Virus record (IMG/VR): IMGVR_UViG_3300008448_012223
DNA: 64,000 nt
Origin: a virus
Reading direction: 5' to 3' (one strand)
Shown: positions 1 through 51,794 of the stretch, in pieces
How positions within the stretch are numbered: position 1 is the first letter of the stretch
How the letters are laid out: every line of letters begins with the position of its first letter
Position numbers and translations under genes: made by a program
Notes under the pieces: model-generated
The model's database searches: none
What the model was told of the DNA's origin: nothing
What the model saw: only the letters and a program-made list of their open reading frames with translations

Positions 1-1137
1 GGCGTCATGCTCGCTGTAGCCGAGCTTGGCCATCTTAGTGAGCCACTCCTCAGAGCGGCTTCCGAAAGTTGTTACTAATGGGACGAGGTACTCTGGAGGA
101 TTCTCCCGTAGTAGCAATAGCTTATTAGCTACTGCTACCTTCAGGGTGGGTATATACCCCTCCTCCCCAAATATAGTTTCTTCGTTCTCTTTAAAGGCTT
201 TGAGCAAAGGGCGCTCAATAGCCCAACTAAGTTCCCCGTACAATTTACGGAGGGCTAGGCGCTTGTGGCCATTAAGCCATAAGTACTGGGCTATGGCCGT
301 GCGCCCCGAGTGGCACACCTCATTAAAGCGCTGCCAGAAGGCAGCGATGCGTTCGGTACGGGAACGACGGCGCGCCCGATCCCACTGTCCCCCCTCCTCT
401 TTCCAGAGGACCCCAGCAAGGGCTCGGAGGTCTGGGCGGGACTTGTACATAGTTCCCAGCCGTACGGCTAAAGATTTGGGAATCTCTGTGTTATATTTCC
501 ATGTCCGCGCAGCTGGGATTAGATCCCATACGTTACCAATGCGGGTGGGAACAGACATATGAACCAGTACCCGCTTAACCCAAATGGGTAAGCGGTTATA
601 GTTTGGGGTAAGCGCTACCCTTAACACTTTACTGTGATCCGGTTGGTAACCGGAGTTCCATACCCGCCCAGGGGTGCGGACATCCTCCCATAGAGGGAGG
701 ATGCGCTTGACCTCCCACCAGTACTTAACACCTAGATCTACTAAGTGTTCAGCCAGCTGAGGAGTTCTTAGCTCCTCGAACCAAACCCCTTCTTTCTCAT
801 AAGAGAGTCCGATACCCTCGTTTAAACGAAGGTATCGGATAAGGCGCAGGCGCACCATGTGCGCCTCCTTTGCTTCCTCCAAGCTTACTTCTCGGGTGAT
901 GACCCGAGAGATAATCCAGCGCTGGGAGCTGGATAGACTATTCCACTCCTCCCACTCACTCCAGGGAGTATGTGGATTGAGTTCCAGCCACTGCCGGAAC
1001 TCAAGTAGAACGTTATAAAGAGAGAAATAGTAGGGAGCGGGGTCAGCTCCTAACTCAGCTTGTGCCTCCCACTCAAGGGAGTAGGCAAGCTGAAGGCGAG
1101 CCGCCTTGGTTTTGGCGGATTTGATAAACTTAGACAT
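1..1137 (-). CDS. Hypothetical early protein, at least 379 aa, runs off the left edge (MSKFIKSAKTKAARLQLAYSLEWEAQ...)
   Basis: Manual translation: ATG at 1137 preceded by GGAGG and no stop down to position 1. Absent from the ORF track because the stop lies outside the window. No family recognised. Confidence 0.85.
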   Translation of the reverse strand, partial: MSKFIKSAKTKAARLQLAYSLEWEAQAELGADPAPYYFSLYNVLLEFRQWLELNPHTPWSEWEEWNSLSSSQRWIISRVITREVSLEEAKEAHMVRLRLIRYLRLNEGIGLSYEKEGVWFEELRTPQLAEHLVDLGVKYWWEVKRILPLWEDVRTPGRVWNSGYQPDHSKVLRVALTPNYNRLPIWVKRVLVHMSVPTRIGNVWDLIPAARTWKYNTEIPKSLAVRLGTMYKSRPDLRALAGVLWKEEGGQWDRARRRSRTERIAAFWQRFNEVCHSGRTAIAQYLWLNGHKRLALRKLYGELSWAIERPLLKAFKENEETIFGEEGYIPTLKVAVANKLLLLRENPPEYLVPLVTTFGSRSEEWLTKMAKLGYSEHDA

Positions 1138-1144
1138 AGAATTG

Positions 1145-1198
1145 TCCTCCTGGGACTAAAATTCACCAGAAGAAAAAAGGACCTTATCAAGACCCCTT
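1145..1198 (-). promoter_or_regulatory. Intergenic element copy 1 (terminator-like hairpin, U-tract, SD-occluding hairpin)
   Basis: Minus strand: hairpin-TTTTTTCTTCTGG-T-GA-attttag-TC-CCAGGAGGA, then ATG 1137. Confidence 0.75.
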
Positions 1199-1203
1199 AA
1201 TTA

Positions 1204-1347
1204 TTATTTATTTACCTCCTCACAGAGTGAAGATTTCAGGTCTCCGTAACAGGCCTCTACGGCTATTCCGCCAACAATGGCGGAGCAGCTAAATGTTAAT
1301 ATTATGATAGAGACAATATAGACGATATCGTACTTACCTAATTTCAT
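1204..1347 (-). CDS. 47-aa membrane microprotein, paralog A (MKLGKYDIVYIVSIIILTFSCSAIVGGIAVEACYGDLKSSLCEEVNK)
   Basis: ATG 1347 after AGGAGGA; hydrophobic helix followed by CYG-x4-SLC. The track ORF 1204..1398 is over-extended. Confidence 0.85.
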   Translation of the reverse strand: MKLGKYDIVYIVSIIILTFSCSAIVGGIAVEACYGDLKSSLCEEVNK

Positions 1348-1350
1348 AAT

Positions 1351-1408
1351 TCCTCCTAGGATTAATAGATCACTAGAAGAAAAAAGGGGATAAAGCATAT
1401 CCCCTTTT
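1351..1408 (-). promoter_or_regulatory. Intergenic element copy 2
   Basis: Minus strand: AAAAGGGGA..TCCCCTTTTTTCTTCTAG-T-GAT-ctatta-ATC-CTAGGAGGA. Confidence 0.8.
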
Positions 1409-1415
1409 AATTAAA

Positions 1416-1931
1416 TTACTTTAACCAGCTTAAGTCTAGCTGGTAATAGAGAAGTTTATCACTCTTCTCTATTGTCTCGAAGAGACCATAGAGGCACTCC
1501 TCGAGATGATCTCGGTCCACCCGGCTAGTCAGACCGAGCCCCTCCCAGGTAGGCTGAGGGGGTTTAATCTCTACCAAGCAGGTCTTGGTGATGCCAACAG
1601 CCAAACGAAGACTGTCGGTACGGCATAACTGGCCCAGCTTCTTATCTACTGCCTCGGCGTCGGTAGTAAGCTGAAGAGCCCATAGCTCGCCAGTATACTG
1701 GCGGACTATTACGTCCACCTTGTATACCCGGTCTAGTACTCCCCAATCATCAGTGGGGACGAGACGACGAAGGACACCGCCTCGGGAGTTGAGCTCTAGA
1801 TGTTCACCCGCGAGATCACGCGCCTGGTTATACAGATAACCCGTATTCCATATCTCTCGGGGCTTCGGACACTCGAAGCCTAACTCTTCAACTAGGCGTA
1901 ACACTACTTTCTCCATCTGTAAACCATTCAT
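1416..1931 (-). CDS. 171-aa protein, possible PD-(D/E)xK nuclease fold
   Basis: E7 in the first helix, LDRVYKVD(73)VIV, ALQ(87)LT(89): restriction-endonuclease-like D...QxT pattern, judged by eye. Confidence 0.5.
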   Translation of the reverse strand: MNGLQMEKVVLRLVEELGFECPKPREIWNTGYLYNQARDLAGEHLELNSRGGVLRRLVPTDDWGVLDRVYKVDVIVRQYTGELWALQLTTDAEAVDKKLGQLCRTDSLRLAVGITKTCLVEIKPPQPTWEGLGLTSRVDRDHLEECLYGLFETIEKSDKLLYYQLDLSWLK

Positions 1932-1937
1932 GATGTA

Positions 1938-1991
1938 CTCCTAGGATTATAGATCACTAGAAGGAAAAAGGGGCCCCCGCCCAGGCCCCTT
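1938..1991 (-). promoter_or_regulatory. Intergenic element copy 3
   Basis: Minus strand: AAGGGGCC..GGCCCCTTTTTCCTTCTAG-T-GAT-ctata-ATC-CTAGGAG. Confidence 0.8.
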
Positions 1992-1996
1992 AACTA

Positions 1997-2131
1997 CTAC
2001 TCTTTGTCTACCTCACATAGTGAAGACGGTAGAGGTCCATAACAGGCCTCATGGTATACTCCACCAACGATAGCGCCGCATACGCCAAGGATGACGGCAA
2101 CAGCCGCTATGTAAGATAATGTGTATTTCAT
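1997..2131 (-). CDS. 44-aa membrane microprotein, paralog B (MKYTLSYIAAVAVILGVCGAIVGGVYHEACYGPLPSSLCEVDKE)
   Basis: Manual translation (below the ORF-track cutoff); AGGAGGG RBS; shares AIVGG..EACYG..SSLCE with paralog A. Confidence 0.85.
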   Translation of the reverse strand: MKYTLSYIAAVAVILGVCGAIVGGVYHEACYGPLPSSLCEVDKE

Positions 2132-2134
2132 AAT

Positions 2135-2188
2135 CCCTCCTAGGGTTATAAGATCACTAAAAGAAAAGGGGCCTTACCAAGGCCCCTT
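2135..2188 (-). promoter_or_regulatory. Intergenic element copy 4
   Basis: Minus strand: AAGGGGCC..GGCCCCTTTTCTTTTAG-T-GAT-cttata-ACC-CTAGGAGGG. Confidence 0.8.
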
Positions 2189-2200
2189 ATTTATTATTTA

Positions 2201-2344
2201 TTATTTATTCACCTCCTCACAGAGTGGAGACTTCGGGTCTCCGTAACAGGATTCCACGGCTACTCCACCAACAATGGCGGAGCAAGTAATTGTTAGGAAT
2301 AGCATACATACAATGTATGCTATATCATACTTATCTAGCTTCAT
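2201..2344 (-). CDS. 47-aa membrane microprotein, paralog C (MKLDKYDIAYIVCMLFLTITCSAIVGGVAVESCYGDPKSPLCEEVNK)
   Basis: Manual translation; near-duplicate of paralog A; AGGAGGA RBS. Confidence 0.85.
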   Translation of the reverse strand: MKLDKYDIAYIVCMLFLTITCSAIVGGVAVESCYGDPKSPLCEEVNK

Positions 2345-2347
2345 ATA

Positions 2348-2397
2348 TCCTCCTAGGAGTTAACTTCACTAGAAGAAAAAGGGGCGCAGTGCCCCTT
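2348..2397 (-). promoter_or_regulatory. Intergenic element copy 5
   Basis: Minus strand: AAGGGGC..GCCCCTTTTTCTTCTAG-T-GA-agttaac-TC-CTAGGAGGA. Confidence 0.8.
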
Positions 2398-2404
2398 CTA
2401 TCAA

Positions 2405-2725
2405 CTACTTAACAAGGATGTAGTTGATGTTGAACTGGAGTATATCCTCCTCCGTCCATCGTTCTCCTTCTGCCAGCCGCCGGGGGCTGACAAATAAACA
2501 TACAATATACTCGGCCCCCGAGGGCACCTGTACCCGATTCACGGGTATGTTTACTCCGAGACGGGCGGAGAGGAGCTCCGCCGTAGAGAGGTGTCCGAGA
2601 GCACTTGTCCACTCAGTAGTGGAGAGGAGAGCGCGGGTCTCTTCCTCTGAAATACAAGTACTAGTGATAGCCCCACCCGGCGTGGTAGGGTAAAGGGAGT
2701 TTGGGAAAGAATTAAGAACGTACAT
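2405..2725 (-). CDS. acrIII-1: AcrIII-1 / DUF1874 family viral ring nuclease (anti-type III CRISPR), 106 aa
   Basis: Family hallmarks in the correct order and spacing: YVLNSF, SALGH(45)LST, NR(64), RR(83)LAE(86)G, TEEDI. Compare SIRV1 gp29 YLANAF, SIGH(47)DST, NR, RLEEG, TLEEI (recalled sequence). Confidence 0.85.
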   Translation of the reverse strand: MYVLNSFPNSLYPTTPGGAITSTCISEEETRALLSTTEWTSALGHLSTAELLSARLGVNIPVNRVQVPSGAEYIVCLFVSPRRLAEGERWTEEDILQFNINYILVK

Positions 2726-2728
2726 AAT

Positions 2729-2781
2729 CTTCCTCTAAGGTTTAAAGTTCACTAGAAGAAAAAGGGAGCATTACACTCCCT
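2729..2781 (-). promoter_or_regulatory. Intergenic element copy 6 (more diverged)
   Basis: Minus strand: AGGGAG..CTCCCTTTTTCTTCTAG-TGAactttaaacc-TTAGAGGAAG. Confidence 0.7.
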
Positions 2782-2794
2782 AAATTACCCCAAG

Positions 2795-3139
2795 TTACTT
2801 GATATAACCTGGGTTCCAGTTAATTACTGGTTCGACGACGAACTCACCGCCGAATATTACCATCTTAGACCAGACTATGCGTCTGGTTGGTAATGCAACC
2901 TCATCGTAGTAGTTTGGGTCGTCTTCGACGTACCACCAGGGGCGGTGGGCTTCGACGTTCCCGTCGAAAGCAAGGATGAAGACTGACCCGTATCCTCCAC
3001 GGGCGAAGTCCTTGGCCACTGCCAAACTGCGGCTGGCATAAAGAACTTCGCTACAACGATCCCAATCTAAGTGATCGTTGGTATGACCACGATAGGCGTA
3101 GTCATACTCCCTGGGAAGATGTTTATATATACTCATCAT
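2795..3139 (-). CDS. 114-aa protein, possible ADP-ribosyltransferase fold (R-S-E clade)
   Basis: AYR(17)G, LYAS(36)RS(38)LAVAKDFA, YYD(79)E(80)V: the three ART strand motifs, judged by eye. Confidence 0.5.
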   Translation of the reverse strand: MMSIYKHLPREYDYAYRGHTNDHLDWDRCSEVLYASRSLAVAKDFARGGYGSVFILAFDGNVEAHRPWWYVEDDPNYYDEVALPTRRIVWSKMVIFGGEFVVEPVINWNPGYIK

Positions 3140-3144
3140 AGGTG

Positions 3145-3197
3145 TTCTCCTGTGGACTAGTGTTCACAGAAAGAAAAAAGGGGCATTGCTGCCCCTT
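3145..3197 (-). promoter_or_regulatory. Intergenic element copy 7
   Basis: Minus strand: AAGGGGCA..TGCCCCTTTTTTCTTTCTGTG-aacactagtc-CACAGGAGAA; compensatory stem change to CTGTG/CACAG. Confidence 0.8.
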
Positions 3198-3214
3198 AAT
3201 TATTATTTATCTAC

Positions 3215-3358
3215 CTATTTATCAGTCTTACACATTGACAGTGCGGGGTAGTCGTAGCAGACAACCCGGTAGAAGGCGCCAAGAATTAGACCATTCACGC
3301 CGAGCACGAGTGCAGCAGCCACAATTAAACCGAGTATATCGTCTTTGATAGATTTCAT
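3215..3358 (-). CDS. 47-aa membrane microprotein, distant paralog D (MKSIKDDILGLIVAAALVLGVNGLILGAFYRVVCYDYPALSMCKTDK)
   Basis: Manual translation; AGGAGGAG RBS; TM helix plus CY-x6-S-x-C-like C-terminal Cys pair. Confidence 0.8.
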   Translation of the reverse strand: MKSIKDDILGLIVAAALVLGVNGLILGAFYRVVCYDYPALSMCKTDK

Positions 3359-3363
3359 AATGT

Positions 3364-3420
3364 CTCCTCCTGGAGATTATAGATCACCAGAAGAAAAAGG
3401 GGCCCTGCCCAGACCCCTTT
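3364..3420 (-). promoter_or_regulatory. Intergenic element copy 8
   Basis: Minus strand: hairpin-TTTTTCTTCTGG-T-GAT-ctata-ATC-T-CCAGGAGGAG. Confidence 0.8.
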
Positions 3421-3422
3421 TC

Positions 3423-3560
3423 TTATCTCATGTTTATATACTCCTGACGCACAGTCGGTATATTCTGGCCGTCTCCACGTTCTGGTAGCTGGCTGGCCAA
3501 TACCGTCATGAAGATAATAGGAATTACTACGACGCTGATAATTAGAGCTAATGATTTCAT
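3423..3560 (-). CDS. 45-aa membrane microprotein (MKSLALIISVVVIPIIFMTVLASQLPERGDGQNIPTVRQEYINMR)
   Basis: Manual translation; AGGAGGG RBS; N-terminal hydrophobic helix; fits between element copies 8 and 9. Confidence 0.75.
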   Translation of the reverse strand: MKSLALIISVVVIPIIFMTVLASQLPERGDGQNIPTVRQEYINMR

Positions 3561-3563
3561 ATA

Positions 3564-3615
3564 CCCTCCTAGGGTTATAGACCACTAGAAGGAAAAAGGG
3601 GCCAATTGAAGGGCC
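3564..3615 (-). promoter_or_regulatory. Intergenic element copy 9 (first unit; terminator hairpin weak)
   Basis: Minus strand: CCCCTTTTTCCTTCTAG-T-GGT-ctata-ACC-CTAGGAGGG; compensatory GGT/ACC inner stem. Confidence 0.75.
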
Positions 3616-3641
3616 GGGTGGGGGAGGGGATATACCCTATA

Positions 3642-3745
3642 ATACGCCCAAATACCGCCAGCAAGTTTATGGAATCTAAGAGCTCTAGGTATTAATACGT
3701 ATACACCCAAATACCGCCAGCAAATATCGAGAATCTAGAAGCTCA
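3642..3745. repeat. Two-copy direct repeat with a 59-bp period at the early/late divergence point
   Basis: CCCAAATACCGCCAGCAA identical at 3647-3664 and 3706-3723, each followed by GAATCTA-N3-AGCTC. Confidence 0.85.
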
Positions 3746-3799
3746 ATAATGAGGCAGAGAGGTGTAGTAGTATGGACCAGTTATATAGGAGGTAATGGT

Positions 3800-4426
3800 A
3801 TGTTAGAGGACATCAAGGGAGCGGTTAGGGTAGAGAAGTTGAGTGAGATACAGGTAAGGGAATTACAGAGGAGGCTAGGGATACAGCAGACAGGAATAAT
3901 GGGGCCAATGACGAGGAAGGCCTGGGAGGACTGGAAGAGGAGTAAGGGTATGGGGGAACCGGGGTTAATAGGGCCGGGTTCTATAGGTCTATTACTAGAG
4001 GAGATAAACTGGACGGATATGACGAGTAAGGTGAGTAAGTACTTCACAGTGAGAGAAGTAACGAAGGGGGAGGCGGCGCGCATACCAACGAGTAAGGTCA
4101 TCCAAGACAATATAATGAGACTAGCTAAGGAGTTAGATAAGATAAGGGAAGAGTGGGGTAAGCCCATTATAGTAACGAGTTGGTATAGGCCCCTTGCGAT
4201 TAACAGGGCAGTAGGAGGAGTGGATAATAGTCAGCATATAGAGGGGCTAGCAGTAGACATAGCGCCCATAGACCCCGCCGAGCTAATCGAGTTCGAGAGA
4301 TGGTTAGACGAGCATTGGTATGGGCCGCTGGGGTGGGGGGCCCAGAGTGGGAGGGGCTTCACGCACCTAGGGTTAACGAGGGGGTGGAGAGCAGGAGGAA
4401 AGAAGGGGCCCCGCTGGAGATACTAA
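3800..4426 (+). CDS. Lysin: N-terminal PG-binding-like domain plus peptidase M15 (Peptidase_M15_3)
   Basis: SKYFTVRE, SWYRP..N.AVGG..NSQH..G.AVDI, GFTHLG. ATG 3800 has AGGAGG; the track ORF starts at 3749. Confidence 0.85.
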   Translation: MLEDIKGAVRVEKLSEIQVRELQRRLGIQQTGIMGPMTRKAWEDWKRSKGMGEPGLIGPGSIGLLLEEINWTDMTSKVSKYFTVREVTKGEAARIPTSKVIQDNIMRLAKELDKIREEWGKPIIVTSWYRPLAINRAVGGVDNSQHIEGLAVDIAPIDPAELIEFERWLDEHWYGPLGWGAQSGRGFTHLGLTRGWRAGGKKGPRWRY

Positions 4427-4483
4427 TGCCTACCCCTCCCCATACAAGACAAGGAGCATTAGCATACTAATACAAGTAGAAGT

Positions 4484-5239
4484 ATGCTAAGAAACATTGA
4501 TAGAGCAATGCGGCTGCAAGAGTTAAATAGTCAGCAGGTGCGGGAGCTACAACAGGAGCTAGGTGGTTTAGTAGTAGATGGGGTAATGGGGCCGAGGACA
4601 GAGGCTAGGTGGAAGGAGTGGAAGGAGGCAAATAATCAAGCGGAGCCCGACCTAATAGGGCCAGGCTCTGTGCGTCTATTATTATCAGATGATGAAGTAA
4701 TGACGAGAGGAGAATACGATCTAGCGTTAGCCCCCGCCTCTAAGAGAGATAGAGATCGATACTACAGGCCCCTAATGGCAGCGATGGAGGAGTGTAATAT
4801 AAAGGAGCCCGCGCGTATAGCGATGTTCCTAGCTCAGCTGATGCACGAGTCAGGGAACCTACGCTACGATGAGGAGATATGGGGGCCCACACCAATACAG
4901 AGGGGATACGAGGGCAGGAGAGACCTCGGTAATATAAAGGTAGGAGATGGGCGAAGATTCAGGGGTAGAGGTTTATTTCAGTTAACGGGCCGGGCCAATT
5001 ACCAAAACATGGGGAATATGCTAGGGCTACCGCTAGTAGATAGCCCAGAACTAGCAAAGGAGCCCGTCAACTCAGCACGCATAGCAGCGCACTACTGGAG
5101 AACACGGGGGCTAAATGAAATAGCAGACAAGAATGATATAGACGCATTCAGGCAGGTAACGCGACGTATCAATGGCGGGCTGATAGGGTTATCAGATAGA
5201 CTAGAACACTGGAAGAGAATACAGGCAGTGCTGACATGA
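4484..5239 (+). CDS. Lysin: PG-binding-like domain plus GH19 (chitinase-like lysozyme)
   Basis: MFLAQLMHESGNLRY, GDGRRFRGRGLFQLTGRANY, INGGLIGLSDR; N-terminus paralogous to that of the M15 lysin. Confidence 0.9.
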   Translation: MLRNIDRAMRLQELNSQQVRELQQELGGLVVDGVMGPRTEARWKEWKEANNQAEPDLIGPGSVRLLLSDDEVMTRGEYDLALAPASKRDRDRYYRPLMAAMEECNIKEPARIAMFLAQLMHESGNLRYDEEIWGPTPIQRGYEGRRDLGNIKVGDGRRFRGRGLFQLTGRANYQNMGNMLGLPLVDSPELAKEPVNSARIAAHYWRTRGLNEIADKNDIDAFRQVTRRINGGLIGLSDRLEHWKRIQAVLT

Positions 5240-33543: not shown

Positions 33544-35415
33544 ATGCGCCCTAAGACACCTGCTGCAGTAATAACGCTGGCCACAGCTGTTGATGAAAAA
33601 CAACCTATATTATTTGGCACTCAGATATGCGCTACTGATATAAACAAGAGTCGCTGGACTGTACGCGCCGTAGATGTTATAATCAACGCCGATAACTGGA
33701 ATATAAATAGAGCTCGCGTAACGCTAACCGTACCAGATGCACCAGGATTACTACCAGCGTTACCTGATGTTAGTAAGTACAGGGGCGGGCGCTACCCCTA
33801 CCTCAGCGAGGAGGATGAGATACGAATTTACATGGGGATGGTGGGGTCAGATAAACAGGTACTGGATATCAATAATCTATCTGATATACCATTTCCTATA
33901 CCAGATACAAATATGAAACCGAAGGAGGGCGCTACTCTATTCCCTGTATTCTGGGGCTTCATTGAGAAGGTAGAGGTAACGGCTGATGCTAATACAGGTG
34001 TGCAGGTAGTGCTATCGTGTCAAGATCGTATGAGGCTACTACATAACACACGTGTTCTATCTAACCCAGATACCTTATTCAATGCCCCCACACCAGAACA
34101 GAAGGGCGATAGAGCCCTCATACTGCGTAAGATACTGAACTTTGCGGTAGGTTACTCCCCTATTGAAACAGAGAGCGGCTCGCAGGTAGCCAGATGCTGG
34201 AAGGAGTTCAAGGAGGGTATGACTGTACGCGGCTACGACATAGGAGCAGATGGTAAGATAGAATACTTATTCGCTAATAAACTAATAGCCGGAAATGCAA
34301 GTAATTCTGAGGTTAAGATTATACAGGACATGAATAATCTTACGCCAGGCGAAGAGCTAGTAGATGCGCCGCGTTGGACACGGGCTGCTATGTTCACGCC
34401 TATGAGCCCAGGAGGTAATCCCCGCACCCATATATGGTTACAGCGCCCGCCTATCGAACAGGGACAGAACCGCGGGGTATTCAACTTCATTAATGAGAGC
34501 CCCGCTGATATAATACAAGCAGCGTTTCTACTCAAGGAGGAGCGCGTAGTAGACGCCTCATTCAGCCATATCAATGGTGATTTTATAATAGCGCCTAATA
34601 GCGGCGATACTAGTGGCTTCCAAGATCCCAATAGGCTATATAGGACCTATTTCTTCCGCAGCCTACCAGCGGGTCTTAACATATGTCCTGATGAGAGACA
34701 GCGCATACTCTCCATGCGGGTAGTAAGTAGTAGTATAGCCACAACTAACCGCTTTATAGTGACTGATGATGGAGGTAATGGCGCATCTGATTCATTCAAT
34801 GATGCCATTGAGGTTACATTACAGGCCACGCCCTATAAGTACGCTGATAGAAAGCCTCCTATTGCATGTAGAGCCACTGTCGTTGAGGATAAGAACCTGA
34901 GCGCCTATACTGACGCAGGCATCAGTAAAGAGACAGGGGCTTTATTAGTTGGTTTAGGCATGGCCCGCCGTACCAGTAGAGATATTAGCACGATACAAAT
35001 CACGATAGTAGGGGACCCCACCTGGTATCCGAATGAGATGTTTCAGGTGTATAATACATTGATACACGATAGGCAGATTATATCAACATACGATTCTATA
35101 GCAGAGGAGAGCGCTATGCACGCTACTAAGAGGAAGTTGAGTGAACAATCAGCGCGCATGCGAGAACACACAGCAAGTAGTTCCTCGGCGCGGGCCATAC
35201 CCTTTCCTGATGGCAGTGAGATACTAACACGGTACGTGGGTGCCCACGTCAATGCCACTGATGAGGACTATGCTGATACTAATAGTGGCCGCATAGCCAG
35301 CGATGTAGGCGATAATCTAGCTAATGCGGTACTACCGAAGTACAAGGTACGCTCGATTCGTCATAAGCTAACACACAGAGATTACACTACTACTATTCAA
35401 GGAAGCGCTGATTAA
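33544..35415 (+). CDS. Baseplate hub protein (Mu gp44 / P2 gpD-like)
   Basis: EIRIYMG..FWGFIEKV..LSCQDRMRLL; GDPTWYPN..V; YKVRSIRHKL..YTTTIQG. Confidence 0.75.
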   Translation: MRPKTPAAVITLATAVDEKQPILFGTQICATDINKSRWTVRAVDVIINADNWNINRARVTLTVPDAPGLLPALPDVSKYRGGRYPYLSEEDEIRIYMGMVGSDKQVLDINNLSDIPFPIPDTNMKPKEGATLFPVFWGFIEKVEVTADANTGVQVVLSCQDRMRLLHNTRVLSNPDTLFNAPTPEQKGDRALILRKILNFAVGYSPIETESGSQVARCWKEFKEGMTVRGYDIGADGKIEYLFANKLIAGNASNSEVKIIQDMNNLTPGEELVDAPRWTRAAMFTPMSPGGNPRTHIWLQRPPIEQGQNRGVFNFINESPADIIQAAFLLKEERVVDASFSHINGDFIIAPNSGDTSGFQDPNRLYRTYFFRSLPAGLNICPDERQRILSMRVVSSSIATTNRFIVTDDGGNGASDSFNDAIEVTLQATPYKYADRKPPIACRATVVEDKNLSAYTDAGISKETGALLVGLGMARRTSRDISTIQITIVGDPTWYPNEMFQVYNTLIHDRQIISTYDSIAEESAMHATKRKLSEQSARMREHTASSSSARAIPFPDGSEILTRYVGAHVNATDEDYADTNSGRIASDVGDNLANAVLPKYKVRSIRHKLTHRDYTTTIQGSAD

Positions 35416-36989
35416 TGTTTGCTAATAACAATGGTGGCCTATACTCTGAGCCCCATTCCTATAAGTACAGTAAGAGCCAGTGGGGCACACAGCGTGGGAT
35501 AGTCCATAGTATCAGTAGGGAGGGCCGCCTAGGTAATTTCTGCTCGGTGCGCCTATTGAAAGGTATGATCCTGGATAACGTTAGGATGAGCGGCCCCTTT
35601 GGTCATAATGGGCTAGGCGTCTATAATCCACTCGAGATAGGACAGCCAGTCATAGTGGGCTTCAATGATGGGAAGATGGAGGATGCCTTCATCCTAGGCG
35701 GATATACCTCAGAGGGTAACTACGATAAGCTATACGTAGATGGTGATTTACAGGAGCCTAATCAGCGCGGCCCCGAGGGTCAGACATTCAATCAACCACT
35801 GGGGCATCCTAATCGCATAACACAGCCCAATGCCTTCTTCCACGTAACAGGTATCAATTCACTGGATACGGCATATGATAGTCCTGATTATGGCTCACTA
35901 GCAGAGGCCTATGATAGACAGCCCCGCCCCGGCGTTATAGAAATACGCAATGACGCAGGCACCCGCTCTCTATATACGAGCGGAGAGAATATACTATTCA
36001 GTGATAGTAACATCTACCTGGTAGCTAACGGCGACCGCCGCAGCAGTGTCAATCACCTCCTACAGCTATCAGCACGGCACTGCGCCCGAGCGGATGGACT
36101 AGAGATGATGCAGGGTATCAGGCCTTCATCGGCTACCACGGAGTCACTGCCTAGCGGCATAACACCTATGGTAGAGGGGCAGGGGGAGGAGCCTGTATCT
36201 ACGACTACTGCTATAACAGTTTCCTATCGTATACAAGAGGAGAGGCGGTTATGTCAGGCCTATCTAGAGGCTAGCCGTCAGAATCTACAACGACAGGCTG
36301 AGGGTATAGCGCGCGTTGAGGATAAATCACAAGACATACCTACACAGAGGGGGTCTGAGGTATCTGATACATATAATGAAAGCCGTAATAATAATAAGGA
36401 TTGGCAGAGTGCCACTAATAAGGAGCCTACTCGCTGGTTCATAACAGCCGGCCACCGCGATGGTAAATCAGGTACTTGTGGAGCTGCTGGCATACCTCTA
36501 CCCCAGGCCCCAGGTCAGTCAGTAGAGAGTTGGATGAATGAACAGGTCGTCAAGATAATGGAGAGACTAGCCCCCTCTTACGGTCTCCAATTATCTATAT
36601 TCTTACCACCAATAGGTACCTCCTGGCAATCAGTGCTAGATAGAGCCGCGCAGGAGAAGACCGATGGCGCGGGTGTTCTAGAGATACACTTTGACGCAGG
36701 TACGGCAGGAGAGTATACGGGTTCCACTGGCGTCATACCTAGCCGTAAGGAAATACTACCATCCGAGGATAGACTAGCTCAAACATTCGGCGCCTTCACC
36801 AGAAATCACCGCAACGGCTTATACGGACCCAATAGAGGGGTACCGCTAGTTGAGGTAGGAGTATTGAATACGCAGGTAGAGGCCTTAATGAGAGGAAATG
36901 ATACAGCAGCACAAAATGCCTATTTCGAAGGGAAGGCCCGTGCTGTTTTACAATCCCTGAAGGGAGGGGCGCAAGATAATGTGGAATAG
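35415..36989 (+). CDS. Central spike (OB-fold) fused to a C-terminal N-acetylmuramoyl-L-alanine amidase (Amidase_3)
   Basis: CSVRL..NVRM..PLEIGQPVIVGF..AFILG (gp5/gpV OB fold); WFITAGH, VESWMN, LEIHFDA (zinc amidase). Confidence 0.8.
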   Translation: MFANNNGGLYSEPHSYKYSKSQWGTQRGIVHSISREGRLGNFCSVRLLKGMILDNVRMSGPFGHNGLGVYNPLEIGQPVIVGFNDGKMEDAFILGGYTSEGNYDKLYVDGDLQEPNQRGPEGQTFNQPLGHPNRITQPNAFFHVTGINSLDTAYDSPDYGSLAEAYDRQPRPGVIEIRNDAGTRSLYTSGENILFSDSNIYLVANGDRRSSVNHLLQLSARHCARADGLEMMQGIRPSSATTESLPSGITPMVEGQGEEPVSTTTAITVSYRIQEERRLCQAYLEASRQNLQRQAEGIARVEDKSQDIPTQRGSEVSDTYNESRNNNKDWQSATNKEPTRWFITAGHRDGKSGTCGAAGIPLPQAPGQSVESWMNEQVVKIMERLAPSYGLQLSIFLPPIGTSWQSVLDRAAQEKTDGAGVLEIHFDAGTAGEYTGSTGVIPSRKEILPSEDRLAQTFGAFTRNHRNGLYGPNRGVPLVEVGVLNTQVEALMRGNDTAAQNAYFEGKARAVLQSLKGGAQDNVE

Positions 36990-38175
36990 AGAGAATCTAG
37001 AACCTCTACTGAATAGACCTGAGTTTAGGGCCCTCCTGGATGTAATCAGTGATAGACAATTTGAGGGGGCCGATTACAATACACTATACGGTGGATCTAA
37101 ATTCAGTAGTTACGAGGATCACCCACGCCAGAGATTCTCAATAGGGGGTGGGGGGAACTACACCACGGCTGCAGGTAGATACCAAATTTTAGATGTGACA
37201 TGGGATGGTATTAATAAAGAGACTGGGGGAATGCTATCTGACTTCAGCCCTCTGAACCAGGATCTAGCCATATTATATTTAATACTCGATGAGACTGGTA
37301 CTACGGTAGAGGAGGTCATGAGTGGTAACATACTAAGCTACTATACCAAGCTACGGAAACAATGGACTAGTCTACCGGGGGCCTCTGAAGCACGAGGTGG
37401 AGAAAATACGCTAGATACTTTATATAAACAGTATCTAGCCTATAGGCGAGGACAGGGTCCGGCACCATCTACTTTGAGTGGTGGTGGTGGGAGTAATGCC
37501 CCCACTATACCGGGCGATAGTGCTTATTCTACTCAACAGTTGGCGCAGGCATTAGTAGAGGGTATAGATGGATTTGTTAATGCTATATTCAAGCGTACAG
37601 GAGAGTTCAAGTGGCCCTATAACCAACGCGATGCTATTACCCACACAGGTTCTGTACCTCAGGTTAATAGAGCTATGACTAATAATACTCTATCCTATGG
37701 AGCAGGAGCCCCCGGCTTTCAGTTCAATGAGGCGAGCGCATTGGCAGGGCAGGTAATACCCGGTAGGTCAGGCTCTGGGGGTGGCATAGTACCCGCTGAG
37801 GGATCTCTGACTAGTGGGTTTGGCTGGCGTTGGGGTAGGATGCACAACGGTATAGATATAGGGGCTCCAATAGGCACACCTATATTAGCCACTATGGCAG
37901 GCAAGGTGATATCAGTCGGATTCGAGAATAATGGATTTGGTAATATAGTTAAACTAGAACACGTAGGGGGCAATCAGAGTTGGTACGCACATATGAGCAA
38001 GTTTGCTGTTAAACTGGCAGATATAGTGCAGCAAGGACAAGTAATAGGTGAGATGGGCAGTACTGGTCATAGCACTGGCCCTCATCTTCACTTTGAGTGG
38101 AGAGTAAGATCTGGTATAGGTGGGGGCCTGAATGCGGTAGACCCACGCCTTAGTGTATTAAAGGGATTAATATAG
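36979..38175 (+). CDS. Lambda-R-type lysozyme fused to an M23 peptidase
   Basis: RALLDVIS..EGADY.TLYGG..DHP..TAAGRYQIL..DFSP.NQD; HNGIDIG..SWYAH..GSTGHSTGPHLHFE. Confidence 0.9.
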   Translation: MWNRENLEPLLNRPEFRALLDVISDRQFEGADYNTLYGGSKFSSYEDHPRQRFSIGGGGNYTTAAGRYQILDVTWDGINKETGGMLSDFSPLNQDLAILYLILDETGTTVEEVMSGNILSYYTKLRKQWTSLPGASEARGGENTLDTLYKQYLAYRRGQGPAPSTLSGGGGSNAPTIPGDSAYSTQQLAQALVEGIDGFVNAIFKRTGEFKWPYNQRDAITHTGSVPQVNRAMTNNTLSYGAGAPGFQFNEASALAGQVIPGRSGSGGGIVPAEGSLTSGFGWRWGRMHNGIDIGAPIGTPILATMAGKVISVGFENNGFGNIVKLEHVGGNQSWYAHMSKFAVKLADIVQQGQVIGEMGSTGHSTGPHLHFEWRVRSGIGGGLNAVDPRLSVLKGLI

Positions 38176-38179
38176 ACTT

Positions 38180-38692
38180 ATGAGAACTACCAGTAAAGAT
38201 GGGGATGAACTAGAGAGGGCTATAGCCCGCGCGGGCGGTATTAGCACTCACGTAAATCAATTCAGGCTACTAACACAATATACGTACGATGCGGATACTC
38301 GTGATGCGCGCGCGGGCTACGCACTAACAGTAATACTACCCAGGCCTTGTTGGTTAGATGCTGTATGGCTACTGAGTGGTATAGAGTTAGTTAGTAGCCC
38401 CCGTCGTATGATGCCGGGCCAGGTACTGGCACTGAATGCAGCTACTATAGGTGTAAGACTGCCGCAGACCATACAGATGCGAGCTGATAGTAGAGAGAGG
38501 CCCAACGTAAACGCCGAGGGTCTCGAGGTGTTAATAAGAAAGCGAATGCCTGATACACCACTAATTAACAACTTTATGATGCTAGCTAACTCGGCTAATA
38601 AACCGCTAGTGGCAGCTCAACTAGCGCGCTGGTTCGGCTACTCGGAGGAGTCAGTGCAAAGCATAGTAGGAGTAATATATCGTGCTAATTAA
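38180..38692 (+). CDS. Hypothetical baseplate-region protein
   Basis: ORF track; operon context. Confidence 0.65.
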   Translation: MRTTSKDGDELERAIARAGGISTHVNQFRLLTQYTYDADTRDARAGYALTVILPRPCWLDAVWLLSGIELVSSPRRMMPGQVLALNAATIGVRLPQTIQMRADSRERPNVNAEGLEVLIRKRMPDTPLINNFMMLANSANKPLVAAQLARWFGYSEESVQSIVGVIYRAN

Positions 38693-39776
38693 CCTAGAGG
38701 CCGTACCTCAATTACCCGGGGCTAATACAGATGCTGTAACACGCATAGATGAAGCGGCTATTAATAATCTATCTATTCTGATAGCGGGCTCTCACGAAAG
38801 ACTAGCCAGTATCATGCGTAACGTACCCCTCCCTCGTACCCGTCCTACGTGGAGAGATATAACGCGCTCTCTAGAGGGGCAGCTCATACTGTTATTATCA
38901 CTACCTACATCGAGTAATCTGGACTACACGGTCATTACGCAGCACGCAGATAGATACAGACGTATAGCGGAGAGGCCTAATTGGCTACCACCCAATGACT
39001 ATAGTGAGACACTACTACTAACTGATAGGCGAGTATGGGGGACCTCTGCTAGTAGTATAGGCTATTACCTACTACTGGGGGGCTATAGAATGCACTATGC
39101 CAGCCCTTGTCGTCTAGTCTACGAGGCTACTCGTACTCTATGGAGCATGCAGCCCAACTGGAAGGAGTATTACGCAACGCTAGGAGCAGAGGGATCACTA
39201 GATAGCCACCGCTTCTTCAAGGCATTTCTATCCCAACCCACTGGTATAACTCGCGTAGCTGGCTTCCTGAACGCCATACAGAATATAGAGGCTACCTATC
39301 TAGAACGCTACTGGGTAGTGCCGGGCGGGCCGGATCTACTATGGGATCTATGGCACGGACAGATAGACCCAGCGTTATTTAATCTCTATGAAGATCTAAG
39401 CCAGGACCCACCAGATGAGCTACGAGAGTGGTTGATACCTACAGAGCCCGGCCTACTACGGCAGGTAAGCAGCAGTATCATAACCTCATTACCGTATCCA
39501 GGGGGCCTCAATACGCACCTGGTGACTATGGCAGCACACATGACCAACCTAGCTTATATACATGCTTATAATTCTCCTCGACCCGATGTAGAGATATACG
39601 TTCTCGCTGATGATGCAGAGAGAACACGTCTAGGACGGGTACGTAATCTACTATATACCGCCTCGCAGTATTTGCGGCGGTCTACGCTAGATCACTGGGT
39701 AATAATGGGTAATAACCTAGCAGCCATATCTGAAATAGATAATCAACGAGGAGCCATACAGGATCTAGACCTATGA
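38682..39776 (+). CDS. Hypothetical baseplate-region protein
   Basis: 364-aa ORF with overlapping neighbours. Confidence 0.7.
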   Translation: MLINLEAVPQLPGANTDAVTRIDEAAINNLSILIAGSHERLASIMRNVPLPRTRPTWRDITRSLEGQLILLLSLPTSSNLDYTVITQHADRYRRIAERPNWLPPNDYSETLLLTDRRVWGTSASSIGYYLLLGGYRMHYASPCRLVYEATRTLWSMQPNWKEYYATLGAEGSLDSHRFFKAFLSQPTGITRVAGFLNAIQNIEATYLERYWVVPGGPDLLWDLWHGQIDPALFNLYEDLSQDPPDELREWLIPTEPGLLRQVSSSIITSLPYPGGLNTHLVTMAAHMTNLAYIHAYNSPRPDVEIYVLADDAERTRLGRVRNLLYTASQYLRRSTLDHWVIMGNNLAAISEIDNQRGAIQDLDL

Positions 39777-42700
39777 GTAAAATAGAAGATCAACTAGTGA
39801 AGGGAGATCTAGGGGCGGGCCGCAACACTCCTACGCTGGGGCCCGCGCTCAATGATCTCAATGAGACATCCAAGAACACAGCATACCAACAAGCAACAGA
39901 GACACTAGGGCAGGCAGCGGCATCTACCACTCCGTTCGAACCTCGTCGCATCAGCTCTCAGATTATAGTGGAGCCCGTGCGGGCGGTAGAGGGGCTATTA
40001 GAATTAAGAGACATGAACCTACAGGCCAACCAGGTTCTGCGGGAGGGCATAGCGCCTAATACAGAACAGAATATTAATGCTGTAGGTACGGCAGTTAATG
40101 GTAATACTGAGCAATCACTAGATGGAATCCGTAAGCTCAAGGAGAGCTCACTCCTTAGTGATAAAGCAGAGCTAGCTGATATAAGTCAGGGCAATGTCAA
40201 TATTGCCCCTGCCAATAGACTCACGCAGGTAGCCAATAACATACAGTTTGTGAGTGATACCAATATCACGCAACGGGCCCCCTTTATGCAGTCCGTCACC
40301 GATAACTATGTAGTGCAGTCCGGGAACTCCATTAATCACATTAGCGACCACCATTACGCAATAGGTAAGGATAGTACTCGAATTATAGAGGGGGACGACT
40401 TACAGCGATCAGGTAATAGACTACGCCTATCAAATAGAAGTGAGACAGTAACCCAAGTAGATAAGGCTACGGCCCTAGGCGAGATGGAGCGGGTCTCTGC
40501 TGATTACAAGAGTTATGCTACTACACACACTAGCACATCATTAAACGAAATGAGGCTCTATAGCTACGGTGAGATGGTAGCAAGAGCCACTAACGTAGAT
40601 CTAATAGCAGCCGCATCACCTGTAGGATCGGAGGCTGCAGACGATAAAGAGGAGCCAGCTGAGATACCAGTGGGCCGCGTTAATATATACTCATCGGTAC
40701 CAGGAGGCGGGCTATCAGGTATGACCTTCAGTCCTGAAGGTATGAACTCCTATGCACTGAAGAGTGCCTTCCAGGGCATAACTCACAATCACATAACTGC
40801 GGGGCCCAGCATATTCCAGGGCGCGGGTGCTGTATTCTCCCTAAGCGGAGTTATGACTCTCAATACACTACCGGCTATACCTGATGAGATAGAGTTGAAC
40901 GTCGACCTCATCCCACACATACCAGAGTTCCCTAAACTACCTGATTTACCTAATGGATGTGGGGCCATACTTGAAAATACAGATACTCCTGAGGAACCAA
41001 CTCAGTCTGATATAGAGCAGTCTGATCCAGATGGCGCTCAAGTACCCACCGAGTCTAATGACTCTGCCACTACGTCGGGTGACACATCGTCGGGTGCCAC
41101 TACGCCAGGAGGCGATGCTATAGGCTCACTAGGAGAGGATATACGGAGCTCTATATCAGCCTCTAAGGTAACTCCTAAGAACCCAGGTAAGGAGAACATA
41201 GCTAAGAGCGCTACTGATACAGCTAAGAATCCACCAGCGTTGGTAGCAGTAGAGCCGGCCGCAGTATCATCGGTAGCCAGTGATGTATATCTAGAGCGAG
41301 AGGGTGAAACGGTAGGAGAGTTGACTATATCTGTCAATACGCCCCTTATAGATATAGCGGGGGACGTGCAATTAGAGGTACAAAAGGTAGGAGAGGATCT
41401 ACAACAATTGGGGCTCAGTGTATCTGCTACTCAGGTAACCACTCTAGTCAATCAGGTACTAACTATCAGTAGAAATAATAGCATAGATGCCATAGCCATG
41501 CTAGAGGGCGGGACCAGTCAGGATCTAGTGCCCGCAGAATTGAAGCAATTGTTTCTTAATTCTCCTTCACTCAAGACTTATATAATCAATGAGATTAAGG
41601 ACGCCCTATCGCTATTATCTATTGGTTTCCTAGAACTAAGTGATCTAGACACCTCGGCCCGCGGGCTAGTAGTAAGTGATAACTCAACAGACCTAGCGCG
41701 GGTATACTCCTTAGTATCACCTGCATTAGACCGGCTATACGAGAGCACAGGTCTTAGCCAATACGGAGACACCACTCAACTAGCGCAGCTGGGGACCTCA
41801 CTATTAAATGGCGAGAAGCTAAACGAACAGACTGTAGACGCTCTAATAATTAACTCTATTAGCAGTAACCTAAATAGAACACTGGGTATAGATGGGGCAG
41901 ACGTAACTAATAAAGTATATAATTTAGCTAAACGACTGGCCAAAGCCAATGACAAAGCCGATGACGAAGCCGATGACGAACCCATAGACGTTGATAAGGA
42001 GATAACCTCTCTCATGAGTTCATTAGGCACTACACTGGACTCTGATTTACTAAAAGATGCTGTATATTATAAAGAACTAGGAGAGAGTATATATAACAGT
42101 GCCTCTGTACTGGCTGACAGTATCTCCACCGGGGATATAGGTAGTATCATACGCGGTGATGGCATCAAATCCCTACTATCAGGGGGGCTAGATAAAATCA
42201 TAGGTGAGAATAATACTGCCCTCATCAGGGCAGCAACTGATATAGGCCGCACCGGACTAGCCCTAGGTAAGTCACTGGCATTAATGCCCAGTATCGTAGG
42301 CGCGCTAAGCGGTAGCGCTATCCAAAAAATAGTGCAACTAATAGATATAATCTCTTGTCTAGATATCGTAGATCAGGCCCGTGACCTAGTTACCGCCATA
42401 GGTAATATCAGTACACAACCTAATAGTAGTCGACCGGGCCGCTCTGGTACTACTGATACATTAGACACACTAGATACTATATCTCTATTACCACGTCTAA
42501 CTCAGTATACCAATACTGTAATCGATCTATACAATAATGGAGATGAGGAGCTAAAGCAAGAGATCATCGAATTAATTGAGGGGCCCATTGATGACGAGGA
42601 TACTGTAACTCCCCGAGAGCCATTATCTACTACAGTAGAGCTACTGGAGGGCCGCTGGAGACTAGGGGTAGATGAGTGCTTCCGACTGCCGCGCCTCACG

Positions 42701-43075
42701 CTAGCCCTAGCAGATACACAGATATTATCAATCAATACTAAATTAACGTGGGGCCTAACTAATCCATTACTCTTCTATACTCAACTAGAGTTACTACCTG
42801 GTAGAGGGGACGACTTACAAATAATAGTAGATAGCTGGACATACGATAATAATACTCTGTACCCAGTGCAGGTTGATAATAGCTATACATCCTCAGTGCT
42901 AACCTACAGGATAACTGACTATGATTGGGGAACTAATGTAGGCCATGCTATATATGATGGTCAGTATGGTTATCTCCGTCTCATCGATGATAGAGGTACT
43001 ATATACACTATACCCAGTACTGCTATCGGAGGCCGCCTCATTCCTCTCATCTCATCATCGTACCTAGTGAAATAA
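39773..43075 (+). CDS. 1100-aa putative virion protein (beta-rich N-half, low-complexity linker, helical C-half)
   Basis: Long ORF inside the baseplate operon; no family recognised. Confidence 0.7.
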   Translation: MSKIEDQLVKGDLGAGRNTPTLGPALNDLNETSKNTAYQQATETLGQAAASTTPFEPRRISSQIIVEPVRAVEGLLELRDMNLQANQVLREGIAPNTEQNINAVGTAVNGNTEQSLDGIRKLKESSLLSDKAELADISQGNVNIAPANRLTQVANNIQFVSDTNITQRAPFMQSVTDNYVVQSGNSINHISDHHYAIGKDSTRIIEGDDLQRSGNRLRLSNRSETVTQVDKATALGEMERVSADYKSYATTHTSTSLNEMRLYSYGEMVARATNVDLIAAASPVGSEAADDKEEPAEIPVGRVNIYSSVPGGGLSGMTFSPEGMNSYALKSAFQGITHNHITAGPSIFQGAGAVFSLSGVMTLNTLPAIPDEIELNVDLIPHIPEFPKLPDLPNGCGAILENTDTPEEPTQSDIEQSDPDGAQVPTESNDSATTSGDTSSGATTPGGDAIGSLGEDIRSSISASKVTPKNPGKENIAKSATDTAKNPPALVAVEPAAVSSVASDVYLEREGETVGELTISVNTPLIDIAGDVQLEVQKVGEDLQQLGLSVSATQVTTLVNQVLTISRNNSIDAIAMLEGGTSQDLVPAELKQLFLNSPSLKTYIINEIKDALSLLSIGFLELSDLDTSARGLVVSDNSTDLARVYSLVSPALDRLYESTGLSQYGDTTQLAQLGTSLLNGEKLNEQTVDALIINSISSNLNRTLGIDGADVTNKVYNLAKRLAKANDKADDEADDEPIDVDKEITSLMSSLGTTLDSDLLKDAVYYKELGESIYNSASVLADSISTGDIGSIIRGDGIKSLLSGGLDKIIGENNTALIRAATDIGRTGLALGKSLALMPSIVGALSGSAIQKIVQLIDIISCLDIVDQARDLVTAIGNISTQPNSSRPGRSGTTDTLDTLDTISLLPRLTQYTNTVIDLYNNGDEELKQEIIELIEGPIDDEDTVTPREPLSTTVELLEGRWRLGVDECFRLPRLTLALADTQILSINTKLTWGLTNPLLFYTQLELLPGRGDDLQIIVDSWTYDNNTLYPVQVDNSYTSSVLTYRITDYDWGTNVGHAIYDGQYGYLRLIDDRGTIYTIPSTAIGGRLIPLISSSYLVK

Positions 43076-43425
43076 TGATAACACCAGTAGACGCCCCACA
43101 AGTCATACGCTACGGCATAGCAATATACGCGCCCCCTCTACCTAGCGTAGATAGTCTGACGCTCGAGATTCTTTATAGTGAGAGCCCCAACCCTCGCCTC
43201 ATACCCTGCTCTACTAGTGTGCGCCTATGGAAACGAGAGAGTGAGCAGGGAGAGAGGGGCACCCTATTCCTATGGAAGAAGGATAATCAATTAACTAAAG
43301 GCTACTATACGCTTATATTAGAGGCAAATAATAGACGAGGCTATTGTTCTATTGCGTTAACGGCGCCCACCGACTACTGGATAGTGGGGCTACCCTATAG
43401 TATTTATCCCCCTATAGCTTTATAA
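43075..43425 (+). CDS. Hypothetical protein
   Basis: ORF track; TAATG coupling to the upstream gene. Confidence 0.65.
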   Translation: MITPVDAPQVIRYGIAIYAPPLPSVDSLTLEILYSESPNPRLIPCSTSVRLWKRESEQGERGTLFLWKKDNQLTKGYYTLILEANNRRGYCSIALTAPTDYWIVGLPYSIYPPIAL

Positions 43426-43427
43426 CT

Positions 43428-43805
43428 GTGGATATAGCGACGAGAGACGGAGATATACTCCTCAGCACAACTGGCGATCTAATGCTAGTAGACGAAAGAG
43501 ACTATCTAGTAAGGCGAGCTCTGGAGATTCCATTGGGTCACGTAGCTATATGGGTACCTGGTACTAGCGACTTTCGATTAGTTGATGCTGACGTGGGGAA
43601 TGCCCTCTATAATTATCTATCTGATCCCCTCAATCTTGACTGGGTAGGTAGGGCTGATATAGCTATAGCCAACGCTCTACGCGCCTTACCATCTGTGTAT
43701 AGTGTACGCGATGTGGATATTCAGGTAACAGGCCCGCGCGAGGTACGCATTAACGTTATATATAATGATAACCGCTCTCTCACGACTACATTGACACCTT
43801 CGTAA
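43428..43805 (+). CDS. Baseplate wedge protein, gp25-like
   Basis: GDILLSTTGDL..RRALEIPLG..GNALY..IANALRALPSVYSV..VRINVIY; lies upstream of the J-like gene. Confidence 0.75.
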   Translation: MDIATRDGDILLSTTGDLMLVDERDYLVRRALEIPLGHVAIWVPGTSDFRLVDADVGNALYNYLSDPLNLDWVGRADIAIANALRALPSVYSVRDVDIQVTGPREVRINVIYNDNRSLTTTLTPS

Positions 43806-43869
43806 GCGCCCCCTCTAGAGCGAGTTTCAATTAATCTTAAGCCTTATTAGGGACATAACAGGTATTTTT

Positions 43870-47629: not shown

Positions 47630-47634
47630 GCACT

Positions 47635-48495: not shown

Positions 48496-48578
48496 TCAAG
48501 TGATCTATCAAATCCTGAATTAGCCTAGCCAAAAAGCAATAAATCAAATTTCCATCTACTGTATACACAGGGCGAAGT

Positions 48579-49421: not shown

Positions 49422-49562
49422 CACCTGCGTATAGTTCTGACGCTGTATCTATTATTGGCTCTATTGCGACTGCCACGAACGACTCGTAACTGAGCGTTTA
49501 AGTGGTTTAACTTTGTTTCTAGCGTGTTCGTTTATTTGTCCTTGTTTTTTGAGTTTACTGAT

Positions 49563-49882: not shown

Positions 49883-49950
49883 AACACAACTAAATTCTTC
49901 CCCAAGTGACCAAAAAATCAAAAGTTTGTTCGGCAATTACATATATTTAA

Positions 49951-50520: not shown

Positions 50521-50530
50521 TGTTATTACC

Positions 50531-50863: not shown

Positions 50864-50867
50864 TGTT

Positions 50868-51365: not shown

Positions 51366-51370
51366 TAGCG

Positions 51371-51781: not shown

Positions 51782-51794
51782 CTGTTGCTCCTAT

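Follow-up and report, generated by a model that had tools for sequence, protein, structure and literature searches.

Does a phage of Microcystis carry an enzyme that could silence the type III CRISPR signalling of its host, and does such a gene belong to a dedicated anti-defence locus? Microcystis has among the largest defence arsenals known and is a target of phage-based bloom-control ideas. The question is raised by a 106-aa open reading frame in IMG/VR virus record IMGVR_UViG_3300008448_012223, from which a stretch of 64,000 nucleotides (the window) was analysed. A first-pass annotation, made from the letters alone, had read the product of this ORF as an AcrIII-1-type (DUF1874) ring nuclease encoded in an early array of a cyanophage. 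Nucleotide comparison assigns the window to a Ma-LMM01/MaMV-like Microcystis myophage of the genus Fukuivirus. Its first 12 kb are 91–96% identical to MaMV-DC, Ma-LMM01, MaMV-CH01, -CH02, -DL01, -DL02, and -DH01 (all Fukuivirus), and overall it is ~92% identical to genomes of this genus; the designation as a cyanophage is therefore correct. The features of the locus are collected in Table 1.

Table 1. Features of the ring nuclease locus in the window.
Feature	Position	Strand	Basis
DUF1874/AcrIII-1-type ring nuclease gene, 106 aa	2405..2725	-	ORF list, Pfam, SIRV1 gp29 alignment, AF2, Foldseek, dN/dS
Stretch without counterpart in MaMV-DC or Ma-LMM01 (inserted or deleted cassette)	2384..2744	-	blastn
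Upstream intergenic unit of the ring nuclease gene	2728..2781	-	Terminator scan, repeat family D1/D2, RNA fold, motif scan
Downstream intergenic unit of the ring nuclease gene	2348..2398	-	Sequence, repeat families, RNA fold
Four paralogous small membrane-peptide ORFs, 44–64 aa	1204-1398, 1997-2131, 2201-2344, 3215-3358	-	
gp067 orthologue, 114 aa, phrog_35503	2795-3139	-	PHROG, Atlas, motifs
gp066 orthologue, 171 aa, phrog_28304	1416-1931	-	PHROG, Atlas

The ring nuclease ORF begins with an ATG at position 2725, five bases past the Shine-Dalgarno sequence GAGGAAG, and the remaining five frames across 2405–2725 hold short ORFs only. The motifs quoted in the first-pass annotation were all present and exactly numbered: YVLNSF at residues 2–7, S41-A-L-G44-H45-L-S47-T48, N63-R64, R83-L-A-E86-G87, and T91-E-E-D-I95. 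The HMM search proposed there as a check gave PF08960 (STIV_B116-like, formerly DUF1874) as the single Pfam-A match of the protein, at 47.3 bits (gathering score 26) and an E-value of 2.3e-12; protein residues 2–101 are aligned with positions 2–100 of the 101-position profile. The PHROGs match was phrog_5063 (3.5e-15), and sequence matches in the PDB comprised AFV3-109 (2j6b, 1e-12), SIRV1 ORF114/gp29 (2x4i, 0.0085), STIV B116 (2j85), and the AcrIII-1-cA4 complex 6scf. The full-length PF08960 match, phrog_5063, and the AFV3-109 match together exclude a chance resemblance. By exhaustive phmmer search of 1.84 billion representatives, we retrieved 266 relatives with E ≤ 1e-3; the nearest ones outside the phage clade are metagenome proteins with ~50% identity. 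A single-protein search of 185,579 species genomes returned no relative of the ring nuclease, and no cellular donor was found among them.

Structure prediction led to the same family. AlphaFold2, run as a single chain on an alignment of the query with 55 phmmer relatives (56 sequences), gave a mean pLDDT of 96.6 and a pTM of 0.86. When the model was compared with the PDB using Foldseek (E ≤ 1e-3), the matches were exclusively DUF1874 structures, namely 2j6b, 6scf, 2j85, 2x4i, and the Csx1-Crn2 fusion 8y7f/8y7g, with TM scores of 0.65–0.76 (0.75–0.76 for several chains of 6scf); anything beyond these was noise (E > 0.3). Structures with bound cA4 are among those matched, both for AcrIII-1 (6scf) and for Csx1-Crn2 (8y7g). 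Judged from the model, the 106-aa protein is predicted to adopt the AcrIII-1 family fold, as in 2X4I, 6SCF, 2J85, and 2J6B.

The active site was examined in an alignment of the query with SIRV1 gp29 (from NC_004087), AFV3-109, the homologues from Hydrogenobaculum phage 1 and Fusobacterium phage Fnu1, and the MaMV-CH01 copy, in which N5, I25, G44, H45, T48, G57, N63, R64, R83, L84, E86, and G87 are invariant columns. The HMMER alignment to 2x4i runs without an indel over query residues 32–98 at an offset of +2, and equates H45, S47, T48, R64, R83, and E86 with H47, S49, T50, R66, R85, and E88 of SIRV1 gp29; N5 corresponds to N8. In the SIRV1 enzyme, H47, conserved without exception, acts as general acid (H47A is down by more than 2500-fold), R85 keeps the dimer shut over cA4, and the ligand is contacted by N8, S11, N13, S49, T50, R66, and Q81, the contact positions being termed "semi or fully conserved" (Athukoralage et al., bioRxiv 10.1101/778746). 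From the SIRV1 catalytic and contact set, the window protein keeps N5, H45, S47, T48, R64, and R83, while three of 11 cA4-contact positions are changed (S11 to P8, N13 to S10, and Q81 to V79). Over the 56 diverse homologues, G44, H45, R64, R83, L84, E86, and G87 are conserved at ≥ 90%. H45, aligned with SIRV1 H47 in the G-H motif, is the predicted catalytic histidine. As H45, R64, R83, and E86 are kept both in the SIRV1 gp29 alignment and in the 56-sequence alignment, the product is a canonical histidine-type DUF1874 protein (viral AcrIII-1/cellular Crn2) and not a member of a variant branch. Pfam, the alignment, AlphaFold2, and Foldseek all agree with the family identity proposed in the first-pass annotation, and the GH histidine and the R/R/E residues are in place.

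We then asked how the gene is distributed among related phages. A tblastn search located it in five newer MaMV isolates (84.9% amino-acid identity), where the records label it "hypothetical protein," and gave no match in Ma-LMM01 or MaMV-DC. When the complete records of the latter two (NC_008562 and NC_029002) were scanned with the PF08960 profile, zero matches were obtained; the same scan detected one copy in MaMV-CH01 and one in an IMG/VR contig, and was positive for B. subtilis, the control. The gene is also carried by seven IMG/VR contigs (87–91% identity), among which the order of the cassettes and the number of adjoining small membrane-peptide genes differ. In two contigs (L008/L009) an ORF68L-like gene lies upstream of the ring nuclease gene, replacing the gp067-like gene, so that not only the presence but also the order of entire cassettes varies. 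In a blastn comparison of window positions 1–4500 with MaMV-DC and Ma-LMM01, homology ends at 2383 and restarts at 2745, and each edge falls within a copy of a repeated intergenic unit. With edges in repeat units and a variable order and number of cassettes, the ring nuclease gene is one cassette of a recombining accessory array; in Ma-LMM01/MaMV-type phages it is an optional element among small leftward genes. Its base composition gives no indication of recent import (GC 0.53 vs. 0.49–0.53 in the larger neighbours). Judged from its surroundings, the gene is encoded by a virus rather than by a CRISPR locus, which would place it with AcrIII-1 rather than with Crn2.

Despite being optional, the gene is maintained by purifying selection. 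All 14 copies inspected have an unbroken reading frame, and dN/dS among nine copies ranges from 0.14 to 0.39 (median 0.23). Across the nine phage copies N5, S41, G44, H45, S47, T48, R64, R83, L84, E86, and G87 never change, at a protein divergence of 12–15%.

The repeated unit at the cassette edges is ~45 nt long (repeat family D1/D2) and occurs in nine copies within positions 1–4000, spanning 1137–3603 on the minus strand. On the coding strand it consists of a GC hairpin with a T-tract, the motif CTTYTRGTG, and a stem that pairs with the Shine-Dalgarno sequence of the next gene. In the unit upstream of the ring nuclease gene, the GC hairpin (2781–2763) with its U-tract is followed by CTTCTAGTG (2758–2750), and a second hairpin (2762–2728) is formed in which the U-tract/CUUCUAG pairs with GAGGAAG, the Shine-Dalgarno sequence shortly upstream of the ATG. 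The downstream unit has a terminator-like hairpin, AAGGGGC...GCCCCTT (2398–2378), a U-tract, and again CTTCTAGTG (2375–2367), and its second hairpin (2377–2348) covers the Shine-Dalgarno sequence of the next small gene; the RNA fold of this unit has an energy of -23.5 kcal/mol (z -2.6). A motif scan of the whole window gave 11 matches vs. 2.0 expected. In positions 34000–52000 of Ma-LMM01 there are six matches, five of them in the spacers after gp064, gp065, gp066, and gp067 and the sixth inside the annotated gp067 ORF, at its 5′ end; this search found no cassette motif in the early cluster gp054-063. The Ma-LMM01 region listed for the element is L015:9758-17284. Terminator, promoter, and processing site are all candidate roles for the unit. 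A sigma-70 promoter scan of positions 1–4000 gave five sites vs. 4.7 in shuffled sequence, i.e., no excess.

The leftward cassette array is bounded by a divergent intergenic region, beyond which lie rightward lysis genes. This region holds a 44-nt direct repeat (3642–3685 and 3701–3744, 82% identical), which is repeated in related phages too. The lysis enzymes, encoded in tandem on the plus strand, are a Peptidase_M15_3 protein (3749–4426) and a GH19 chitinase-like lysozyme (4484–5239), with a common N-terminal module of ~70 aa (43–50% identity, weak PG_binding_1 match). MaMV-DC is without the M15 gene.

When would the ring nuclease be made? The insertion site is flanked by the gp066 and gp067 orthologues, and expression data for these genes exist for Ma-LMM01. 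In this phage the early class (B1) comprises gp054-gp063 (Morimoto et al., PMC5780444), while gp064-gp067 are in class B5, with a middle-promoter call for gp066 and gp067 (PMC5780444, Table S3); B5 is the middle class, of 162 genes (PMC5780444). At 1 h, log2 expression of gp064-gp067 is 1.6–2.8 vs. 7.3–7.9 for the early genes gp061-gp063 in adjoining table rows (PMC5780444). Since the flanking orthologues are of class B5 and the motif occurs only after gp064-gp067, the array that holds the ring nuclease probably belongs to the middle genes, as judged through Ma-LMM01 as a proxy that is itself without the gene. The first-pass description of an early array is thus not supported, with flanking genes of middle class and a cassette element absent from the early cluster. 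By the same proxy, expression would come too late to pre-empt signalling, although a middle-phase enzyme could still do so where signalling is set off by late transcripts. It is when late transcripts are targeted that Csx1, activated by cOA, is held to be required (PMC11855584).

A suitable target is present in the host. M. aeruginosa FACHB-524, from which the MaMV phages were isolated, carries type III-B systems at three loci; clusters 4 and 5 include accessory genes for Csx1 and CARF proteins, and two of the three loci hold spacers that match all six MaMVs, one of them perfectly (PMC11855584). The reconstituted Cluster 4 Cmr complex of FACHB-524 gives ~10-fold protection of E. coli against T4, to which Csx1 adds ~10-fold (PMC11855584). 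The expectation that Microcystis carries type III systems is borne out by this strain, and its combination of type III-B, Csx1, and MaMV-matching spacers makes degradation of cA4 a sensible counter-measure. At the same time, MaMV-DC infects FACHB-524 (PMC11855584) without the gene and despite matching III-B spacers; hence the gene is not required for infection of this strain.

Taken together, we consider it probable that the locus carries a canonical DUF1874 cassette that cleaves cA4 to blunt host type III-B signalling, most likely in the middle phase. The analysis shows that the protein belongs to the family, has its fold, and conserves its residues, and that the gene lies in a phage, is present in some relatives and absent from others, and evolves under purifying selection; that the protein dimerises and cleaves cA4, when it is made, and that it counters CRISPR in vivo are extrapolated from homologues and neighbours. 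By homology to SIRV1 gp29, a homodimer would bind one molecule of cyclic tetra-adenylate (cA4) at the dimer interface and R83, on a mobile loop, would shut over it. H45 of each subunit would serve as general acid, and in-line attack by the 2′-OH would convert cA4 into two A2>P halves. In infected Microcystis, loss of cA4, the presumed second messenger produced by Cas10 of the type III-B (Cmr) system, would then leave Csx1 and other CARF effectors off. Expression, by analogy with the neighbours, would most likely fall in the middle phase and precede the late transcripts that some host spacers would target. Signalling by cA6 is not countered by AcrIII-1 (bioRxiv 10.1101/778746).

The same enzyme could be an active cA4 ring nuclease and yet play no anti-CRISPR role in natural infection, because it appears too late or because the host systems are evaded otherwise; its value would then lie elsewhere, e.g., in limiting late collateral damage by Csx1 or in a second, protein-binding activity like that of SIRV2 gp37. 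We regard this as unlikely. The middle class of the flanking gp066 and gp067 in Ma-LMM01, the lack of the cassette element in the early cluster, and the infection of FACHB-524 by MaMV-DC without the gene all fit it. A precedent is SIRV2 gp37, whose middle/late expression abolished native anti-CRISPR activity, although the plasmid-expressed protein works, and which binds a host methyltransferase (10.1101/2023.01.10.523387); that partner, however, is confined to crenarchaea (10.1101/2023.01.10.523387). The timing argument itself rests on Ma-LMM01, which is without the gene, and against spacers to late genes an enzyme of the middle phase would be on hand in time. The strict conservation of the residues for cA4 cleavage under purifying selection also speaks against this explanation.

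Two further explanations were weighed. RefSeq names the lipothrixvirus and bicaudavirus homologues "DNA binding protein," which would suggest a small DNA-binding or regulatory protein with no role in cyclic-nucleotide signalling. This label was given before members of the family were shown to be ring nucleases (bioRxiv 10.1101/778746) and was rejected as outdated; with the catalytic histidine and the cA4-contact residues kept (except P8, S10, and V79) and a model that matches a cA4-bound structure, we find such a role very improbable. That the gene is a passenger in decay, without present function, might be suspected from its dispensability in two sequenced relatives, but this is already contradicted by the selection analysis: 14 of 14 frames are intact, the median dN/dS is 0.23, and the key residues are invariant at 12–15% divergence. 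The gene also has its own Shine-Dalgarno sequence and terminator, and we give the passenger explanation hardly any credence.

Returning to the cassette that probably blunts type III-B signalling, we considered whether its neighbours share this purpose. The first-pass annotation had described the array as an anti-defence island and its other genes as anti-defence candidates by association. Positions 1–3600 hold about nine cassettes, and the ring nuclease is the only one with a match to a known family. The others, i.e., the ORF68L-like gene, the 171-aa gp066-like and 114-aa gp067-like genes, four membrane peptides of 44–64 aa, and a 45-aa ORF, matched nothing in Pfam or NCBIfam, and in PHROGs only families of unknown function. 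With one recognisable anti-defence gene among nine cassettes, the island is not supported, and guilt by association is weak.

The individual neighbours nonetheless have features of their own. Each membrane peptide has one hydrophobic helix, then a C-Y-G...L/M-C-x-x motif and a K/E-rich tail, and each ORF has its own Shine-Dalgarno sequence and hairpin unit; one to three copies adjoin the ring nuclease gene in related phage contigs. In the 114-aa protein, the motifs Y-R17-G, S36-R-S38, and D79-E80-V-x-L-P are invariant among relatives, of which only close ones were found, and recall R-S-E ADP-ribosyltransferases; its ESM Atlas feature lead is an Arr-type (Arr-ms) ADP-ribosyltransferase cluster (0.92). 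It had no Pfam match and its AlphaFold2 model was unusable (pLDDT 36), and we treat a putative ADP-ribosyltransferase as a lead only. For the 171-aa protein no profile match was found; its ESM Atlas feature leads are a cyanobacterial "putative endonuclease" cluster (0.94) and MjaI/TaqI restriction-endonuclease clusters (0.88–0.89). It is conceivable, but in our opinion doubtful, that the leftward array (1–3600 and beyond) is a modular counter-defence/host-takeover locus whose cassettes are swapped by recombination at the hairpin-CTTYTRGTG units, with acrIII-1 as its sole recognisable member and the neighbours as unrecognised counter-defence factors. If so, the R-S-E-like 114-aa protein, the nuclease-like 171-aa protein, and the 44–64-aa membrane peptides would be tuned to defence-rich Microcystis.

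The identification of the ring nuclease is sound but routine, since an ordinary Pfam scan is enough to find the gene. The founding paper already reported DUF1874 genes from Caudovirales and from cyanobacterial genomes (bioRxiv 10.1101/778746), and a copy from a Microcystis MAG, 88% identical to the window protein, carries the automatic NCBI name "DUF1874 domain-containing protein" and the UniRef name "STIV orfB116 family protein." Our literature search returned nothing that links AcrIII-1 or DUF1874 to Microcystis phages, and no anti-CRISPR reported for the Ma-LMM01/MaMV group, the best-studied group of Microcystis phages. Five MaMV isolates with the gene and MaMV-DC without it, all six infecting FACHB-524, form a natural comparison; with the type III-B/Csx1 system of this strain already reconstituted in E. 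coli (PMC11855584), the function is open to direct test, and it matters for predicting host range. The main value of the locus is this ready-made comparison on one host together with the available reconstituted target system.

Known systems resemble the locus at the level of both the array and the enzyme. In the hyperplastic regions of T4-type phages, cassettes are shuffled by promoter/stem-loop (PeSL) elements; small accessory genes are likewise bracketed by repeated hairpin units, and their content and order vary between close relatives. The window's motif differs from PeSL in its make-up (hairpin, T-tract, CTTYTRGTG, and a Shine-Dalgarno-pairing stem), and its promoter or terminator role is putative. 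Among the enzymes, AFV3-109 of Acidianus filamentous virus 3 (2J6B) is the best sequence and structure match (35–40% identity, E 1e-12, Foldseek E 3e-8); it differs in being an archaeal-virus protein, and the literature searched yielded no cA4 assay of this protein. Another close system is AcrIII-1 of SIRV1 (gp29; 2X4I, 6SCF), beside which the DUF1874 protein of Thermoanaerobacterium phage THSA-485A is to be named. SIRV1 gp29 and the window protein have in common the Pfam family, fold (TM 0.75 to 6scf), length class, the catalytic histidine with equivalents of N8, S49, T50, R66, R85, and E88, and a virus-encoded, stand-alone gene. The window protein is only ~22% identical to it, differs at P8, S10, and V79, comes from a phage of a mesophilic cyanobacterial host, and has a predicted activity. 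Crn2, as in the Marinitoga Csx1-Crn2 fusion (8Y7G) and B. subtilis YddF, has the same domain and, by homology, presumably the same chemistry; yet it lies in or is fused to type III CRISPR loci as an off-switch of the host, whereas the gene described here is a free-standing phage cassette.
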